From a virus (taxonomy: Duplodnaviria; Heunggongvirae; Uroviricota; Caudoviricetes), in IMG/VR virus record IMGVR_UViG_2721755660_000004: a DNA stretch of 45,337 bases; one strand, 5' to 3'. The number at the start of each line of letters is the position of its first letter. Positions within the stretch are counted from its first letter, which is position 1. The translations under genes and the position numbers were made by a program. A model generated the notes under the pieces. That model was not told the DNA's origin. It worked only from the letters and a program-made list of their open reading frames with translations, and did no database searches. Positions 5,485-18,809 of this stretch are shown here, piece after piece.

Positions 5485-6141
5485 TCAGAAAATATCCCAC
5501 CTGGCATCAACTACAACACCTACTATTTCGCAATCATTGTCCATTTCTATGATTGGATATTGTGGATTAAGGGGCTTTAGAAACGCCTTTCCCATTTCAG
5601 AAATATATTTTTTGAATGTTGCTTCATTGGTGGATTTTTTTCTGGCGATGACGTAACACCCTGAAAAAACTTCTTTATCTGGGTTGACAAGGATCGACAT
5701 TCCTTCAGGAAATGTTATTCCTACGGGCGAAGTCATTGAGTCTCCGTGCACTTCCAGCCAGAACCCCCTATCACCAGCGTATTTTACAGAATGCCTCCAG
5801 TTATCCTGATCATACATGTTGTAGTCATCACCAGCAGTTGCGAATAATCCTGCCTGAACCCAGTTAATTACAGGGTAAGAGTGTGCTGTGTCTCTCTGTG
5901 GGCAGCTCTTAACATTATTTTCCCAATGCTTATCTTTTTCATCTCCGCTCTGAAGCCACTGCGGTGAACACTGCAGTGCAGCTGCGACTTTAAAAAGGGT
6001 GTCACCGTTGAAACTTTTTGTAAGGCCTTGCTCGGCTTTACTGATTGCAACTCTGGTGACCCCTGCTTTTTTAGCCAACGCATCTTGCGTTAACCCAGCT
6101 TTTTGTCGTGCGTTGATGAGGCGTTCACCTAAAGATTTCAT
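5485..6141 (-). CDS. cI: CI-type prophage repressor: N-terminal HTH plus C-terminal S24 (LexA-like) autopeptidase (218 aa)
   Basis: HTH (GLTQDALAKKAGVTRVAISKAEQG) and S24 motifs (GDSM..., later KK). AAGGAG SD before the ATG at 6141. Divergent from a cro-like gene. Confidence 0.9.
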   Translation of the reverse strand: MKSLGERLINARQKAGLTQDALAKKAGVTRVAISKAEQGLTKSFNGDTLFKVAAALQCSPQWLQSGDEKDKHWENNVKSCPQRDTAHSYPVINWVQAGLFATAGDDYNMYDQDNWRHSVKYAGDRGFWLEVHGDSMTSPVGITFPEGMSILVNPDKEVFSGCYVIARKKSTNEATFKKYISEMGKAFLKPLNPQYPIIEMDNDCEIVGVVVDARWDIF

Positions 6142-6163
6142 TTTTCTTCTCCTTTCATGGCTG

Positions 6164-6236
6164 CTGATACTAAAGTAACAGAATCTCTTGATACTTTGGA
6201 TTCTCGCGTTTAACATTCTTGGATAACAGAGTATCC
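6164..6236. promoter_or_regulatory. OR-type divergent control region (putative PR, with operators)
   Basis: On the plus strand: -35 TTGATA (6188-6193), 17-nt spacer, -10 TAACAT (6211-6216). TTGATACTTTGG (6188-6199) is identical to the OL copy. A related CTGATAC lies at 6164-6170, and GGATA-N6-TATCC at 6221-6236. Confidence 0.5.
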
Positions 6237-6252: not shown

Positions 6253-6480
6253 ATGACCCTTTATGAAATATTAAAAACTCAATTTAAAACCAATGCCGCT
6301 ATTGGCCGCAGGTTCCCAAAGAAAGGAAAGCCTCGTGGCAGTCAAGGTGTTGGAAAGTGGAAAACGAGAGGTGTTCCAGAGGACGTAGCTATTCTCTGCC
6401 ATCTGGATCCAAGTATCCCGTATATCCATCCTGATTTAGCGCACACAGAAGAGGGGCAAGGTAAGCAATCGGAGGTGTGA
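6253..6480 (+). CDS. cro: Cro-like small DNA-binding regulator (75 aa)
   Basis: Small basic ORF divergent from cI across the operator region. Function is assigned mainly from position. Confidence 0.7.
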   Translation: MTLYEILKTQFKTNAAIGRRFPKKGKPRGSQGVGKWKTRGVPEDVAILCHLDPSIPYIHPDLAHTEEGQGKQSEV

Positions 6481-6481
6481 T

Positions 6482-7228
6482 ATGTCACAGTGCTTAGCGA
6501 TGCTTCAGAAACTTAATCAGCGTGTTAAGGCTGGGAAGAATTTCTGCGGGAGTTTTGATAACCGGAACAATCCGCCTGTCTTCATAGAGCTCACTAGCTT
6601 TCAGTGCGTTAAAAAAGTTATCTACGGCTTGTTGGTAACTTCGTGCTTGTCTGCTGCTCAGGTGAGGGCGCAGTCTTCTGAAATCGTCTCTGGATATATG
6701 TGGCATATCCCGTTTTCCGTCTCGGCAACCCTCGCGGAAGGCGTCAAGGATCAGGAACAATTCATCAGCGACGGCATTGAACTCTTTCCGCTTATCTCGA
6801 TTTTTGGCAAGCCAGTGTCCGAGCCAGGCGCCAAGTCCAAAAGCACTAACCGTCCAGATGAAGGTAACAAGGCGCGGGTTGGTATTGAACAGAAGAACAA
6901 ACTCACTCCAGATGATTCCCATAATTTCTGGCGACTCCTTTTTGTTCAGGTAGCGGCATTTCTTGTTGCATTTCCTGTTGGTGCTTATTTCAGCATGCGG
7001 GCAAATCTTCGCAATGACTGGCGTAAGCATATCCAGAAAGGAAGACGCCTGAAAGTACCCGTACTGGCTATGTTCTCCATCACAGGCATCAGCGATCGCA
7101 TTAAACCTCGATCTTGGCAGATATGGGAACGGAAGCATTGGTTTCAGGATATGCGGATATGCCATGGGATCGAGGCTGCTTATAGGGATGCATGGCTCTG
7201 GAAAAAGCGCGTAACTGAGAAGTGCTGA
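6482..7228 (+). CDS. Hypothetical protein (248 aa), possibly membrane-associated. Strand assignment is uncertain (see findings).
   Basis: The ATG lies 1 nt after the cro stop, with a GGAGG SD 6 nt upstream. It ends 38 nt before the next gene. An equally long codon-aligned antisense ORF (6494-7300) competes with it. Confidence 0.45.
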   Translation: MSQCLAMLQKLNQRVKAGKNFCGSFDNRNNPPVFIELTSFQCVKKVIYGLLVTSCLSAAQVRAQSSEIVSGYMWHIPFSVSATLAEGVKDQEQFISDGIELFPLISIFGKPVSEPGAKSKSTNRPDEGNKARVGIEQKNKLTPDDSHNFWRLLFVQVAAFLVAFPVGAYFSMRANLRNDWRKHIQKGRRLKVPVLAMFSITGISDRIKPRSWQIWERKHWFQDMRICHGIEAAYRDAWLWKKRVTEKC

Positions 7229-7265
7229 ACCGTGATCCCAATAATTTATCCGTAAGGAGGTATCA

Positions 7266-7973
7266 GTGAACACCGCAATTTTTAACGATAAAGCATCCAT
7301 GACCAGCGTTGAGATCGCAGAGCTGGTGGGTAGTCAGCACTCAGATGTTAAACGTAGTATCGAACGCCTGGTTGCTAAAAACGTCATCCGGAAACCGCCA
7401 ATGGCTGTTTCCGAGAAAATCAATAACTTAGGTTTTAAAGTTCAATATGAGCATTACCTGTTTGAAGGAGAACAAGGTAAGCGCGACAGCATCATTGTCG
7501 TCGCACAGCTCTGCCCTGAATTCACTGCTCGCCTGGTAGATCGCTGGCGCGAACTGGAAGAACAGATCCGTAAGCCAATGAGCGAAATCGAAATGGTTGC
7601 TGCGATGGCTCTTGAAGCCGTTCGTCAGCAAAAACGCCTCGACCAGATGGAAGAGAAAGTCACCCACGTTACTGAAACCGTCGAGCAAATCAAAAGAGGC
7701 ACCATACGCGATGGTTATGCAGGCTATCGTCAGCTGGTGGCGAAAACGGGTATGTCAGATGCGAAATGCCGCAATCCGGTGAACGCATATCAGATCCCTA
7801 CCGACACCCATGAATTTATGACGCCGGATGGATTGTTGTCTCGTCGCGCGATTGTTGCAGTAGAACCCTTCATGTCTGCTTTTCATCGCATGATGAGTGA
7901 AGCAGAACCACGAGGTACTCGCTGGTATCACCCGAAAATGGGGTTGTTCCAGGCGCTGGGCTGGCAGGTGTAA
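7266..7973 (+). CDS. Rha-family phage regulatory protein (235 aa, GTG start)
   Basis: N-terminus matches the Rha pattern (MTSVEIAELVGSQHSDVKRSIERLV). AAGGAGG SD 5 nt upstream of the GTG. Confidence 0.8.
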   Translation: MNTAIFNDKASMTSVEIAELVGSQHSDVKRSIERLVAKNVIRKPPMAVSEKINNLGFKVQYEHYLFEGEQGKRDSIIVVAQLCPEFTARLVDRWRELEEQIRKPMSEIEMVAAMALEAVRQQKRLDQMEEKVTHVTETVEQIKRGTIRDGYAGYRQLVAKTGMSDAKCRNPVNAYQIPTDTHEFMTPDGLLSRRAIVAVEPFMSAFHRMMSEAEPRGTRWYHPKMGLFQALGWQV

Positions 7974-7992
7974 TTATGCTCACAGGTAACAC

Positions 7993-8166
7993 ATGCAAGT
8001 ACTCAATCGCTGGTTCCGTGATGGAAGGGGGCGTCGCGTCCACGTTATACGCTGGGAGCCTGAAACACAGCGGGTTATTTACCTGCGTGATGGTTATCCG
8101 CATGAATGCTTCAGCCCGCTGTGGTTGTTTCGTCGTGATTTTGTTGAGTGTGAAGCACCAGCATAA
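7993..8166 (+). CDS. Small DUF4222-like protein (57 aa, hand-translated: MQVLNRWFRDGRGRRVHVIRWEPETQRVIYLRDGYPHECFSPLWLFRRDFVECEAPA)
   Basis: Below the ORF-track cutoff. It shares its pattern with 1765-2007 and 9475-9699. It replaces the implausible 5' part of the 500-aa track ORF. Confidence 0.5.
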   Translation: MQVLNRWFRDGRGRRVHVIRWEPETQRVIYLRDGYPHECFSPLWLFRRDFVECEAPA

Positions 8167-8229
8167 GCTTGAACTGCTTGAAAAACCTGGATATATCATT
8201 CTGATATCTAGAGTAATGGAGAATGGTAT

Positions 8230-8622
8230 ATGGGAAGAAAAGCAAGGCATCTTGCAAATAAAGAAATCATTAAAGTATTGGCTGAACGCTATCCAGAAAG
8301 CTTCTTTGTTATTCCATACAAAGTGGTTCCGCTTGTTCACGATATCGTTCATGAGCTCTTTGCCGATCTCGGACATATACCTAAGGAATACAAAAACAGC
8401 CTTCGAAGAGCCATCTATCAGTACAAAAGCTCAGATTCATACCTTCAGTCAGTCGCGTTTGGAGAATATCGCCGCAATCTGGCGGGAAATCGTATTGTCA
8501 GAACATCCGTATCTGAACGCGAAGAAGCCAGAGCACAACTCAAAGAACGTGGTATCTGGACTCGTCGTATGGAGCTCTTGTTCAAAGTTAATATGGGTAG
8601 AAAAGAAGCGTCTAATCGCTGA
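8230..8622 (+). CDS. ProQ/FinO-family RNA-binding protein (130 aa)
   Basis: Collinear with the remembered E. coli ProQ N-terminal domain: NKEIIKVLAERYPESF vs SKEVIAFLAERFPHCF; SLRRAIYQYKSSDSYL vs QLRSALRLYTSSWRYL; ...RRNLAGN...EEARAQLKE. GGAG SD 8 nt upstream. Confidence 0.85.
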   Translation: MGRKARHLANKEIIKVLAERYPESFFVIPYKVVPLVHDIVHELFADLGHIPKEYKNSLRRAIYQYKSSDSYLQSVAFGEYRRNLAGNRIVRTSVSEREEARAQLKERGIWTRRMELLFKVNMGRKEASNR

Positions 8623-8671
8623 ATTTTATCAAAACATTGATTCCTTAATTTCGGAACGTTACACTGTTCAG

Positions 8672-8748
8672 GCACCTTATAAAACGGGTGCCGGGATTGG
8701 CGTCCTGAAATTCAATATAGAGCATAACCGCGCTCATGCGGTTTTTTC
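8672..8748 (+). ncRNA. Candidate small RNA (about 75 nt) between a sigma70-like promoter and an intrinsic terminator
   Basis: -35 TTGATT (8637-8642), 17-nt spacer, -10 TACACT (8660-8665). 5' hairpin GGCACC-N10-GGTGCC (8671-8692). Terminator hairpin plus U-tract at 8726-8748. No credible ORF. Confidence 0.35.
8726..8748 (+). terminator. Rho-independent terminator (AACCGC-GCTCAT-GCGGTT + T6)
   Basis: 6-bp GC-rich stem followed by TTTTTT, seen directly. Confidence 0.6.
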
Positions 8749-8914
8749 GTGTCATGAGCATTGCTACGCCCAAATTATGGTGGGGCGTGCAGGGGCATCG
8801 CAAGATGCGCCGGGTTCTATGTTGACCGGTTACGCCAACCCTGTACGTCTCACCACCTCTGTGATTGGCGTCCCATGTGGTGAGTTCTTTGAATTCAACA
8901 TAGGGGCTGTCACC

Positions 8915-9478
8915 ATGACTACTCTCCCAACCCTCTCTCAACCTGAAATTGCGATCGTTGATGGTCAGGCTGTTACATCTTCTTTGGCTGTTGCTGACTT
9001 CTTCTCTAAACGTCATGACGATGTTCTGAAAAAGATCCGCATTTTGGATTGTTCTCCAGAGTTTTGTGCCCGCAATTTTGCGGAGACATCAATTTTGGTA
9101 CACCAGCCCAACGGCGGTACTCGCAAACTTCCTTGCTACCACATCACCCGCGATGGCTTCGCGTTCCTGGCAATGGGCTTTACTGGCAAACGTGCAGCCC
9201 GGTTCAAAGAGGCATACATCAACGCCTTTAACCAGATGGAGAAGAATTTATCTGGTGCTGACGCGGTTGATATGTCAGCTGTTGCACGAAACGCCAGAGG
9301 CGTATACCTGCATTTGCGTGAAATCCATCAAATCTGGAAAAGCCAGCTTTACCCCATGCTTAAGGCCGTTGAATCTCCGCTGGCGAGCAAGCTGTATGAC
9401 CGTGTAGGAGATGCTGTTTTTGGCGCTGCACTTGTTGATTCCAGACTTAATGGTTCTGACAAGGAGGCGCACCCATGA
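8915..9478 (+). CDS. Second Rha-family phage regulatory protein (187 aa)
   Basis: The internal start MTTLPTLSQPEIAIVDGQAVTSSLAVADFFSKRHDDVLKKI is the typical Rha N-terminus. The track's 500-aa ORF upstream of it crosses a terminator and the ProQ-like gene. Confidence 0.75.
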   Translation: MTTLPTLSQPEIAIVDGQAVTSSLAVADFFSKRHDDVLKKIRILDCSPEFCARNFAETSILVHQPNGGTRKLPCYHITRDGFAFLAMGFTGKRAARFKEAYINAFNQMEKNLSGADAVDMSAVARNARGVYLHLREIHQIWKSQLYPMLKAVESPLASKLYDRVGDAVFGAALVDSRLNGSDKEAHP

Positions 9479-9699
9479 TTCGCCGCATCGTTAATTCCCT
9501 GTATCACCGATACAACCGTTGCCCCCGTGTGGGGCAGTGGTTCGCCACCAGCAACGGTCACGTTCTGCGGGTTTGCCTAGTCAACGCTGAAAGCCAGAAA
9601 GTCGTGTGCGAACTACAGGGGCGTAGCTACACCATCAGTTACCCGCTGGCGGTATTTCTGTCTGGAAAAATGTTTAAGCGTCTGGGAGGTGCCGTGTGA
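9475..9699 (+). CDS. Small DUF4222-like protein (74 aa)
   Basis: ATGA overlap with the upstream stop. Same sequence pattern as 1765-2007 and 7993-8166. Confidence 0.6.
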   Translation: MIRRIVNSLYHRYNRCPRVGQWFATSNGHVLRVCLVNAESQKVVCELQGRSYTISYPLAVFLSGKMFKRLGGAV

Positions 9700-10688
9700 G
9701 CCGTTACGCTCCTACACCTGAAGTTATGGCTATTGGCCAACTCAATATTTCTGGCAATGTCACACCAGCGAACTGGTGGAAACATATTCGGCTACCAAGT
9801 GGTCGTCCGGATGCGACTGCCATTGCGCTGCTTTCAGAGATTGTTTACTGGTACCGCCCGACAGAAGTCAGGGATGAGCATACCGGGGCTTTACTGGGAT
9901 ATCGCAAGCGTTTTCAGGGTGACAAGCTGCAAAGAAGCTATCAGGCGTTTGCTGAACAGTTTGGCTTTGGGAAAAGGGAAACCGCAGATGCGCTGAAGCG
10001 TCTTCGTGATGCTGGGTTTATTACTCTGGATTTACGTACGGTGGAAATGCTAGACGGGGTGAAATGCAGCAATATTTTGTTTGTCGGGATCAACCCACAG
10101 GCAATTGCTGCCATCACCACACCTTCTTCTGTTTCGCCAGAAAGTAACAGCAATAACTCAATCAGCGATACAGCTATTACGTTAAAACGGAACACCCCCC
10201 AACGTCATAACGGAACAGGGGATACGCCGAATGTTGATACAAATACAGAGATTACTACAGAGATTACAACGGAGACTAAAAACACTATTGGCGCATCCGC
10301 TGACGCGTCTGCACCAGCGCGTTCTGCCCGACAGGAATATTCACCGGAATTTGAACAGGCCTGGCAGGAATATCCCAAACGTGCTGGTGGCAATTCCAAG
10401 TCAGCAGCCTTCAAAGCCTGGAAAGCCCGTATCAGGGAGGGAATAAAACCGGAGACCATGCTTGATGGTGTGAAGCGGTATTCCGCCTGGGTACGCGCTA
10501 CAGGAAATACCGGCACACAGTTCGTGAAGCAGGCAGCGACGTTCTTTGGCCCCGATCGTCACTTCGAAGAATTCTGGCAACAGCCAGCCGCTCCCGGAGG
10601 TGGGCGACAGCGACAGGTCGATGTCCTGTCTGGCCTTGGTGCCATGTCTGACAAATTCGGTAAATCCAGTGACAAATTGACATTCTGA
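9696..10688 (+). CDS. Replication initiator, O-like / DnaD-type winged-helix protein (330 aa, GTG start)
   Basis: Sits immediately upstream of the DnaC-like and DnaB-like genes. The N-terminal wHTH-like region ends ...KRETADALKRLRDAGFI. A low-complexity linker precedes the C-terminal EFEQAWQEYPKR...AAFKAWKARI motif. Confidence 0.7.
   Translation: MSRYAPTPEVMAIGQLNISGNVTPANWWKHIRLPSGRPDATAIALLSEIVYWYRPTEVRDEHTGALLGYRKRFQGDKLQRSYQAFAEQFGFGKRETADALKRLRDAGFITLDLRTVEMLDGVKCSNILFVGINPQAIAAITTPSSVSPESNSNNSISDTAITLKRNTPQRHNGTGDTPNVDTNTEITTEITTETKNTIGASADASAPARSARQEYSPEFEQAWQEYPKRAGGNSKSAAFKAWKARIREGIKPETMLDGVKRYSAWVRATGNTGTQFVKQAATFFGPDRHFEEFWQQPAAPGGGRQRQVDVLSGLGAMSDKFGKSSDKLTF
10245..10280 (+). 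repeat. Tandem 12-bp repeats ACAGAGATTACT / ACAGAGATTACA / ACGGAGACTAAA inside the initiator linker
   Basis: Seen directly. The repeats encode TEITTEITTETK. Confidence 0.8.
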
Positions 10689-18592: not shown

Positions 18593-18786
18593 AATGTTAA
18601 ATCCATCACAATTAAGTTGATTGGGCATTGCTGGTTGACGGAGCTTTTGTTAGAAAAAATTTGCATGGTGGATCCCCCCGGGTGGTGGGCATATGAGTGA
18701 TGTATGTTTCTGTTCTGCTCCTTTATTATGCTGATTCGGGTACTGATACTGAATTCATCGGGAGGCACCCGGCACCATGCAAGCAT

Positions 18787-18809
18787 GCCCCTCTCCTGAG
18801 GGGCTTTTT
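18787..18809 (+). terminator. Intrinsic terminator (GCCCCTC-TCCT-GAGGGGC + T5)
   Basis: Perfect 7-bp GC-rich stem plus T-run. Confidence 0.65.

Follow-up and report, generated by a model that had tools for sequence, protein, structure and literature searches.

A candidate FinO-domain RNA chaperone encoded beside an IsrK–C4 antirepressor cassette in a lambdoid prophage

Why does a prophage carry a stand-alone gene of the FinO/ProQ family of RNA-binding proteins directly upstream of what looks like a small RNA (sRNA) unit? The question is raised by positions 8230–8914 of a 45,337-nucleotide stretch of caudovirus DNA (IMG/VR record IMGVR_UViG_2721755660_000004), the whole of which is here called the window; its segment 7200–9700 is 100% identical to E. 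coli GB089 (NZ_CP013663) and belongs to a lambdoid prophage. An earlier note on this DNA had described a ProQ/FinO-family open reading frame (ORF) followed by a gap that holds a promoter, a hairpin and a terminator, and had suggested a cis-linked protein–RNA regulatory pair. As judged from sequence comparison, the 292-bp gap is a complete cassette of the P1 immI/Gifsy-1 type, comprising a decoy, an antisense RNA and a target. IsrK and C4 are known RNA families with a characterized homologue and are not new, and the FinO-domain identity of the ORF is already in public annotation; what appears to be new is that a FinO-domain protein is conserved beside the C4-type RNA switch. The elements of the locus are as follows.

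8230–8622, plus strand: stand-alone FinO/ProQ-domain gene, 130 amino acids, ATG start, GGAG at 8218–8221
8623–8914: gap after the FinO ORF, 292 bp
8637–8665, plus strand: putative isrK promoter (TTGATT at 8637–8642, 17-nt spacer, TACACT at 8660–8665)
8672–8748, plus strand: IsrK-family sRNA (a1/b1 "decoy"), from Rfam RF01394, terminator scan, fold and Gifsy-1 alignment
8671/2–8691/2, plus strand: 5′ hairpin of IsrK, from fold prediction
8697–8703, plus strand: IsrK box b1, TTGGCGT, presented by the second hairpin
8712–8721, plus strand: IsrK box a1, TCAATATAGA, single-stranded
8726–8748, plus strand: IsrK intrinsic terminator, stem at 8726–8743 followed by a T-run
8773–8860, plus strand: C4-type antisense RNA, Rfam RF01695, clan CL00128
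8777–8779, plus strand: upstream AUG, counterpart of the first orf45 AUG in Gifsy-1, in frame and 138 nt before the Rha start
8816–8825, plus strand: C4 box a′, TCTATGTTGA, in the loop of hairpin 2
8832–8838, plus strand: C4 box b′, ACGCCAA, in the adjacent junction
8865–8871, plus strand: target box b2, TTGGCGT, in the Rha leader
8895–8903, plus strand: target box a2, TCAACATAG, in the Rha leader, overlapping the Shine–Dalgarno sequence AGGGG at 8902–8906
8915–9478, plus strand: second Rha-family gene, with replication genes beyond

The upstream RNA of the gap was recognized by the Rfam isrK model (RF01394), which matched 8672–8748 with 62.8 bits (gathering score 50) over model positions 1–77 of 77. 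The adjoining promoter-to-terminator unit proposed earlier is thus genuine and, by Rfam, is IsrK, and the transcript estimated at about 75 nt corresponds to a predicted 77-nt RNA that fits the family end to end; the idea of a novel sRNA at 8672–8748 was dropped in light of this match. A sub-threshold match to c4-a1b1 (RF03163) was also present at 8659–8711. Both the 5′ hairpin and the intrinsic terminator were upheld by the terminator scan and the fold. The sigma70-like hexamers and their 17-nt spacer are present as described, but the promoter had been called good and matches consensus at only 8 of 12 positions, which is below the threshold of the generic promoter scan and explains why that scan missed it. 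The IsrK model match, whose first position is taken as the inferred transcription start, begins 6–7 nt after the hexamers. Sequences compared with the window carry L numbers: the promoter is kept in L029, a relative without the FinO gene, and in L002 and L004, and promoter-like hexamers, picked out by eye and unscored, occupy the same relative place in L005, L010, L015, L020, L023 and L027. IsrK is catalogued as Hfq-binding in its Rfam family name, and the ProQ-associated sRNAs of Salmonella include IsrK and IsrJ (PMC5391140).

The earlier note had described a lone sRNA, leaving 8749–8914 empty. This stretch holds a C4 RNA and its target boxes. The Rfam C4 model (RF01695) matched 8773–8860 over its full length with 80.1 bits (gathering score 45), and the minimum-free-energy fold (−46 kcal/mol, z = −5.1) coincides with the Rfam consensus: a 17-bp closing stem, two inner hairpins and a 3′ tail ending ...CACCACC. 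The 3′ features comprise this tail and a tRNA-acceptor-like stem; the C4 RNA of P1 is cut out of a longer transcript by RNase P.

The short boxes of the C4 RNA find their complements on both sides. Box b′ pairs exactly with TTGGCGT in IsrK (8697–8703) and again in the Rha leader (8865–8871), and box a′, TCTATGTTGA, complements 8712–8721 in IsrK, with one G·U pair, and 8895–8903 in the leader. In ten other modules box a likewise has one complement in the short upstream RNA and another beside the start codon (10/10); box b has the two only in the seven Rfam-C4-type modules, the three sRNA-Xcc1-type modules showing one box. The box sequences vary between modules and co-vary at all three sites (11 modules including the window), and a hybrid, L004, combines the b boxes of the window with the a boxes of L002, each box changing in all of its copies together. 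Pairing was scored by exact complementarity, since an unconstrained RNAduplex matrix of cognate and non-cognate pairs was swamped by the shared stems. The predicted arrangement is that of the P1/P7 immI logic, and the Rha gene at 8915–9478 (Pfam Phage_pRha, 4e-27; TIGR02681, 5e-26; matches to PHROG regulator and anti-repressor families) would be the putative cassette-controlled regulator or antirepressor, a counterpart of Gifsy-1 anrP and P1 ant.

Two further features of these modules were observed. Decoy box a1 (8712–8721) differs from target box a2 (8895–8903) by C-to-U changes, which create G·U wobbles with C4, so that the decoy would pair more weakly than the true target; the pattern repeats in a second specificity variant (L002/L004). 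Modules also occur in tandem. E. coli N96 (L003, 3973–5180) carries three IsrK–C4 modules before ash and Rha genes, no two of which combine the same a and b boxes; two are found in L014 (3443–4000), and L015 (3502–4143) has a pair of sRNA-Xcc1-type modules before two ORF6N genes. Such tandems point to stacked antirepressor switches, each with its own address, as a common feature.

The sRNA-Xcc1 (RF02221) RNAs, found at L015 3502–3587, L019 1057–1138 and L026 1452–1536, share the architecture of the C4 module. Each is preceded by a short RNA with a terminator, in L015 also with promoter-like TTGACA/GATACT; the loop box complements this upstream RNA and the region 3–11 nt before the downstream start codon, and the gene that follows is of antirepressor type in L015 and L026. 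RF02221 lies outside the C4 clan CL00128, yet the two families may be one class.

The protein encoded upstream of this cassette is, as the earlier note had read it, a ProQ/FinO-family member. The check proposed there, a profile search of the ORF against the ProQ/FinO Pfam model, gave a significant match (PF04352, E = 2e-13, 50.7 bits against a gathering score of 27, residues 10–107), and RefSeq names the protein (WP_038813125.1) "ProQ/FINO family protein." A profile of the subfamily matched PDB entries for the ProQ N-terminal domain (5nb9, E = 1.6e-17) and RocC (7rgu, 1.9e-14) and, more weakly, NMB1681 (2e-5) and FinO (4e-3); Legionella Lpp1663 was also matched. The FinO-domain fold consists of helices around a two-stranded β-sheet, forming a shallow bowl. 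The AlphaFold2 model (predicted local distance difference test score, pLDDT, 93.6) has helices and strands at E80–82 and E88–91, and the top 26 Foldseek matches in the PDB were all FinO-domain structures (RocC, Lpp1663, NMB1681, FinO), the best being the RocC FinO domain at a template-modeling (TM) score of 0.72–0.80. Together, the model and the structure search describe a FinO domain with one additional C-terminal helix only.

In ProQ, Tyr70, Arg80 and Arg100 of the concave face are RNA-contact residues, known from mutagenesis and structures. These align with Y71, R81 and R101 of the window protein, of which, in an alignment of 18 subfamily members, Y71 is the same throughout and R101 is kept in at least 90%, position 81 being K or R in some. 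Scores against the NCBIfam equivalog models fell below cut-off both for ProQ (NF003434, 41.2 bits versus 127) and for FinO (NF010317, 19.7 versus 136), and the window protein thus appears to represent a distinct subfamily, orthologous to neither. It matched no PADLOC defense model, and the idea that it belongs to a defense system was dropped on that result.

Turning to how this subfamily is distributed, a HMMER scan of 1.84 billion cluster representatives returned 47 relatives, about 20 of which are stand-alone proteins of 124–131 amino acids and constitute the subfamily. Genomic contexts were taken for 12 representatives of 50%-identity clusters (P0002 to P0012 and P0014); two clusters were uninformative, as fewer than 100 nt were available beyond the gene. 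Of the 11 informative clusters, 9 have a C4-type and/or IsrK-type RNA about 50–550 nt downstream of the FinO gene on the same strand. The clusters listed here are identified with their percent identity to the window protein.

P0002 (52%), L005, a P2/186-like prophage: IsrK, C4 and a "Derepression" family gene
P0005 (40%), L010: IsrK-like RNA, then a C4 cut by the contig end
P0006 (36%), L015: sRNA-Xcc1-type RNA, then ORF6N; the pair is present twice
P0008 (38%), L019: sRNA-Xcc1-type RNA
P0009 (35%), L020–L022: C4, then Bro-N; L021 also has an AlpA gene and is satellite-like
P0010 (34%), L023 and L025, P2-like: C4 about 550 nt downstream
P0011 (33%), L026: sRNA-Xcc1-type RNA, then AntA
P0012 (36%), L027: IsrK/a1b1, then the contig end

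In all positive cases the C4-type RNA is separated from the FinO stop codon by a short RNA that ends in an intrinsic terminator. The positive clusters are 33–52% identical to the window protein, the linked clusters occur in lambdoid, P2-like and AlpA-satellite contexts, and the downstream genes with a family match fall into six families (Rha, Ash, Derepression, ORF6N, Bro-N and AntA). Within the roughly 146 kb of flanking sequence scanned with Rfam (all contexts except L001, L006, L013, L024, L029 and L030), every C4-type match lay downstream of a FinO gene and none elsewhere. Adjacency maintained at such divergence, across three kinds of element and six gene families, argues for selection on the protein–RNA neighborhood. 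Moreover, an identical E. coli FinO gene precedes three box variants, with Rha or Ash genes downstream, which fits recognition by shape rather than by sequence.

We found no report of conserved FinO–C4 synteny in the literature searched. A review of the FinO family mentions phage-encoded members generically only (PMC9977716), and a 2026 survey lists "BRO, Icd, ProQ" together, without comment, in a phage-inducible chromosomal island (PICI) of E. cloacae (PMC13612085). Two of the contexts stand out: in L010 (1–3866) the FinO-like gene and its IsrK/C4 module lie beside GmrSD and AAA_15 genes, a defense-island-like setting, and in L021 (152–430) the FinO-like gene is near an AlpA gene, which is typical of satellites and fits the PICI of that survey.

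The FinO gene is rare and the RNA cassette is common. With 8230–8914 as query, 276 phage records, including many Shiga toxin (Stx)-converting phages and ST64B, matched over the non-coding part at about 8630–8914 only, DNA homology to hundreds of phages beginning just 5′ of the isrK −35 element; none of these 276 records, which carry the IsrK–C4–Rha segment, has the FinO gene. The broader query 7200–9700 was matched in 1745 of 5426 complete E. coli genomes; the FinO gene is present in 13 of the 5426, in every case at least 99% identical. By tblastn (E ≤ 1e-3) the window protein had no match in 50,697 phage records or 72,556 plasmids, and P0006 and P0009 had none in the same phage records; at this threshold, neither sequenced phage isolates nor plasmids contain the subfamily. 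Searches with alignments of the closer members yielded nothing in genome contigs or metagenome contigs and only near-identical copies in viral contigs, where searches with the single distant members P0016, P0019 and P0021 also yielded nothing. A DNA pattern for the C4 loop gave 120 loci in genome contigs, most of which seem from their titles to belong to high-GC genomes and are probably due to chance; no FinO-like ORF was seen among them, and the scan is uninformative on how often a C4 has a FinO neighbor.

Pairwise alignment with the collinear FinO-less L029 (E. coli 2014C-4587) delimits the insertion, which sits exactly between the stop codon of the preceding DUF4222 gene and the isrK −35 element and leaves the RNA cassette near-identical.

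8167–8636, plus strand: FinO cassette, an insertion of about 470 bp relative to L029

The occurrence of the cassette in hundreds of phages without the FinO gene marks the protein as an optional accessory and not an obligate partner. The cis-linked protein–RNA pair suggested earlier gains support from the linkage in 9 of 11 informative clusters and from the reported association of host ProQ with IsrK (PMC5391140).

The setting of the locus agrees with the early rightward operon, between two Rha-type genes, in which the earlier note had placed it. The neighboring genes are these.

5485–6216, minus strand: LexA/S24-type repressor gene
6253–6480: small rightward gene, cro-like by position only, the next gene being of unknown kind
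7266–7973: first Rha/Ant-like gene
7993–8166: DUF4222 gene

Encoded in this operon, the FinO-like protein would be produced after loss of the prophage repressor. The FinO stop codon lies about 15 nt from the isrK −35 element, with no terminator found between them by the scan; the IsrK terminator, the first intrinsic one after the FinO stop, probably ends FinO transcripts too. Outside this region, Rfam STnc100 (RF02076) matched the window at 18634–18809 on the plus strand with 93.7 bits (gathering score 47), and a weaker copy was found in L012 at 231–433.

The gap might alternatively be read as protein. The earlier note saw no credible ORF in it, which holds only in part: the frame of the Rha gene is free of stops from 7901 to 8914, against six stops in each of the other two gap frames, and RefSeq starts the Rha coding sequence (CDS) at 8615. 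The 292 bp could then encode the N-terminal part of a longer Rha protein, the hairpins being incidental or serving only to end read-through from PR; long CDSs from PGAP or GenBank across the region in several phages, and variant gap lengths that differ by multiples of three (292, 295 and 298 nt), would fit. We consider this very improbable, because the two full-length Rfam matches score far above their gathering scores, the C4 fold has a z-score of −5.1, and the modules differ mainly in their boxes, with compensation at the RNA level at three sites. In addition, the first residue of the Rha Pfam domain is number 21 of the short form, a form with a Shine–Dalgarno sequence of its own and a start at 8915, and the Gifsy-1 equivalent is a separate 45-codon ORF of variable amino-acid sequence, out of frame with anrP. 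These points argue that 8623–8776 is RNA and not protein. From this alternative only translation from the AUG at 8777 stays plausible, which is compatible with the RNA model: that codon lies at +106 of the isrK transcript, counted from the inferred start, versus +107 for the orf45 AUG (PMC4825925), is in frame also in L004 (141 nt) and L002 (144 nt), and may be used as orf45 is in Gifsy-1.

Annotated CDSs run through IsrK–C4 in the window (8615–9478), in L003 (3892–4944) and in ST64B (L030, 2188–3345); in N96 one "ash" CDS covers two entire RNA modules, and PHROG 821 likewise appears to be extended at its N terminus, by about 143 positions. Such extensions of antirepressor, ash and Rha CDSs are likely systematic mis-annotation, and annotation pipelines should mask IsrK and C4 rather than stretch CDSs across them. 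The Rha frame is also the +1 frame of the DUF4222 and FinO genes, and codon shuffling gave P = 0.006 for zero stops in the FinO gene. An overlapping gene in this frame across the FinO gene was considered and rejected, as most homologues do not keep the frame open: it has no stops in L005, the closest, and L027, one in L020, and 4–10 in the nine others checked. The stop-free +1 frame of about 1 kb is probably due to chance.

Several known systems resemble this locus in part. The earlier note knew of no characterized lambdoid example; for the RNA part there is one, IsrK in Gifsy-1 (PMC4825925), where the short form of IsrK turns on translation of orf45 and anrP by acting in trans on the mRNA that results from read-through (PMC4825925); orf45 is reported to be translated, and a processed RNA, STnc1160, comes from the orf45 region (Hershko-Shalev et al. 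2016, PMC4825925). Gifsy-1 isrK–orf45–anrP aligns with the window base for base through the promoter, IsrK, C4-like segment, leader and start codon, with isrK, C4 and c4-a1b1 matched by Rfam in both, an antirepressor-type gene downstream and the AUG at the 5′ edge of C4 kept. The b boxes (TTGGCGT/ACGCCAA) of Gifsy-1 (L031, 34131–34316) are identical to those of the window, whereas the a boxes differ. Gifsy-1 differs in having a Q-like antiterminator gene, antQ, upstream of isrK, with no FinO-domain gene there, and in the late-region context of its cassette, that of the window being in the early right operon; moreover, orf45 overlaps the anrP start (ATGA), whereas the AUG of the window is in frame with Rha. 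L004 shows that the two kinds of box can be exchanged separately, and some cross-talk among the C4 systems of different prophages seems possible.

The immI region (icd–ant) of P1 and P7 shares a C4 RNA identified by the covariance model, the order of target copy, C4, and target copy over the ribosome-binding site, and two short boxes that set specificity and differ between heteroimmune variants. The window departs from P1 immI in that the upstream target copy is a discrete, terminated sRNA, the host element is a lambdoid prophage and the antirepressor is of Rha type; we know of no FinO-type gene for P1 immI. FinO/FinP–traJ of F-like plasmids, FopA/Inc–repZ of IncI plasmids and RocC/RocR of Legionella (PMC9977716) have in common with the window a FinO fold, a gene on a mobile element that adjoins a structured RNA and conserved linkage, as well as RNAs with a helix and 3′ tail and loop–loop pairing on the ribosome-binding site, the latter predicted for the window. 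In contrast, the window protein is of a shorter, distinct subfamily, its RNA system is common without the protein, and its RNAs are a decoy and antisense pair transcribed in the direction of the target, unlike the cis-antisense transcript of FinO systems. The CI RNA of P4, with seqA and seqC, has been cited as a structural analogue of IsrK (PMC4825925). Like IsrK–C4, P4 CI is a processed RNA that pairs with sequences up- and downstream and controls genes of the same transcript. Its mode of action is transcription termination, and its Rfam family is another one.

FinO domains recognize a helix that runs into a free, unpaired 3′ tail, with little dependence on sequence, and plasmid FinO and FopA stabilize their cognate antisense RNA and promote loop–loop pairing (PMC9977716). 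Both candidate ligands, IsrK and C4, lie within 250 nt of the FinO gene. We propose that the constitutive-looking promoter makes the 77-nt IsrK, and that part of the transcripts would read on into C4 and the Rha gene. C4 would be excised from the read-through RNA, and its two exposed boxes would bind b2 and a2, which would mask the ribosome-binding site and keep the antirepressor silent; IsrK, through b1 and a1, would compete for C4, or for the corresponding stretch of the mRNA, and thereby turn translation on. The FinO-like protein would bind the terminator stem and free 3′ tail of IsrK, and may also bind processed C4 through its 17-bp stem and 3′ tail. Such binding could stabilize IsrK or C4 and speed loop–loop pairing, as FinO does with FinP/traJ and FopA with Inc/repZ, and the protein would then sharpen the antirepressor switch. 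Whether the net effect would be repression or activation cannot be told from sequence. On balance, we think it probable, with some reserve, that the window protein is a dedicated chaperone of the IsrK/C4 pair. The wider proposition, that a dedicated minimal-FinO subfamily travels with C4-type cassettes in lambdoid phages, P2-like phages and phage satellites as a cofactor of the RNA switch, is advanced more tentatively, at a little under even chances.

Several observations weigh against a dedicated role. The cassette is near-identical in FinO-less prophages, Gifsy-1, ST64B and Stx phages, so that the protein is dispensable for the switch; the need for a private chaperone is not obvious, IsrK being catalogued as Hfq-binding and E. 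coli having ProQ; for P0003 (L008) and P0014 (L028), neither C4 nor IsrK was detected within the 250–340 nt downstream; and the synteny cases are not fully independent, since the FinO gene and RNA block could move as a unit. The protein might instead be a bystander moron that acts on host RNAs, for example as a mimic or competitor of ProQ, its position reflecting a recombination-prone module junction at which accessory genes collect, and the switch relying on host factors alone. That the gene is a discrete insertion at a module junction, rare (13 of 5426 genomes) and nearly invariant, would be expected of such a moron, as would a cassette that is unchanged with or without it and widespread without it, and the two subfamily members that lack a C4 neighbor; ProQ-type proteins, furthermore, can have broad regulons (PMC9977716). 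We nonetheless find this unlikely, since same-strand adjacency in 9 of 11 divergent clusters, in unrelated elements and before six gene families, is hard to obtain from junction effects alone, and IsrK has already been reported as a ligand of a FinO-domain protein, ProQ (PMC5391140). Less likely still is a competitor that, as a FinO domain without the ProQ C-terminal domain, occupies the 3′ ends of IsrK or C4 and blocks ProQ, Hfq or 3′ exonucleases, changing the fate of the RNA without matchmaking. Its architecture of FinO domain plus one helix, and scores far under the ProQ and FinO equivalog cut-offs, could be so interpreted, as could the links of IsrK to both Hfq (Rfam family name) and ProQ (PMC5391140) and the sensing of terminator 3′ ends by both Hfq and FinO-domain proteins (PMC9977716); yet functional RNA binding or chaperone activity is attributed to minimal FinO-domain proteins, N. 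meningitidis ProQ and Lpp1663 among them (PMC9977716).

If these proposals are correct, a phage-encoded FinO chaperone would for the first time have defined cognate RNAs, and C4/IsrK-type immunity RNAs would gain their first protein partner. Such a protein would tune antirepressor release and hence prophage induction or cross-induction, and it could explain antirepressor release independent of host ProQ or Hfq in some prophages. The locus would also offer a compact natural system of three RNA sites and a chaperone for studying FinO-promoted loop–loop pairing. The same cassettes are present in Stx-converting phages, where antirepressor control bears on induction of the toxin phage. More broadly, the FinO/FinP paradigm would be extended from plasmid conjugation and replication to the lysis–lysogeny circuits of phages and their satellites.

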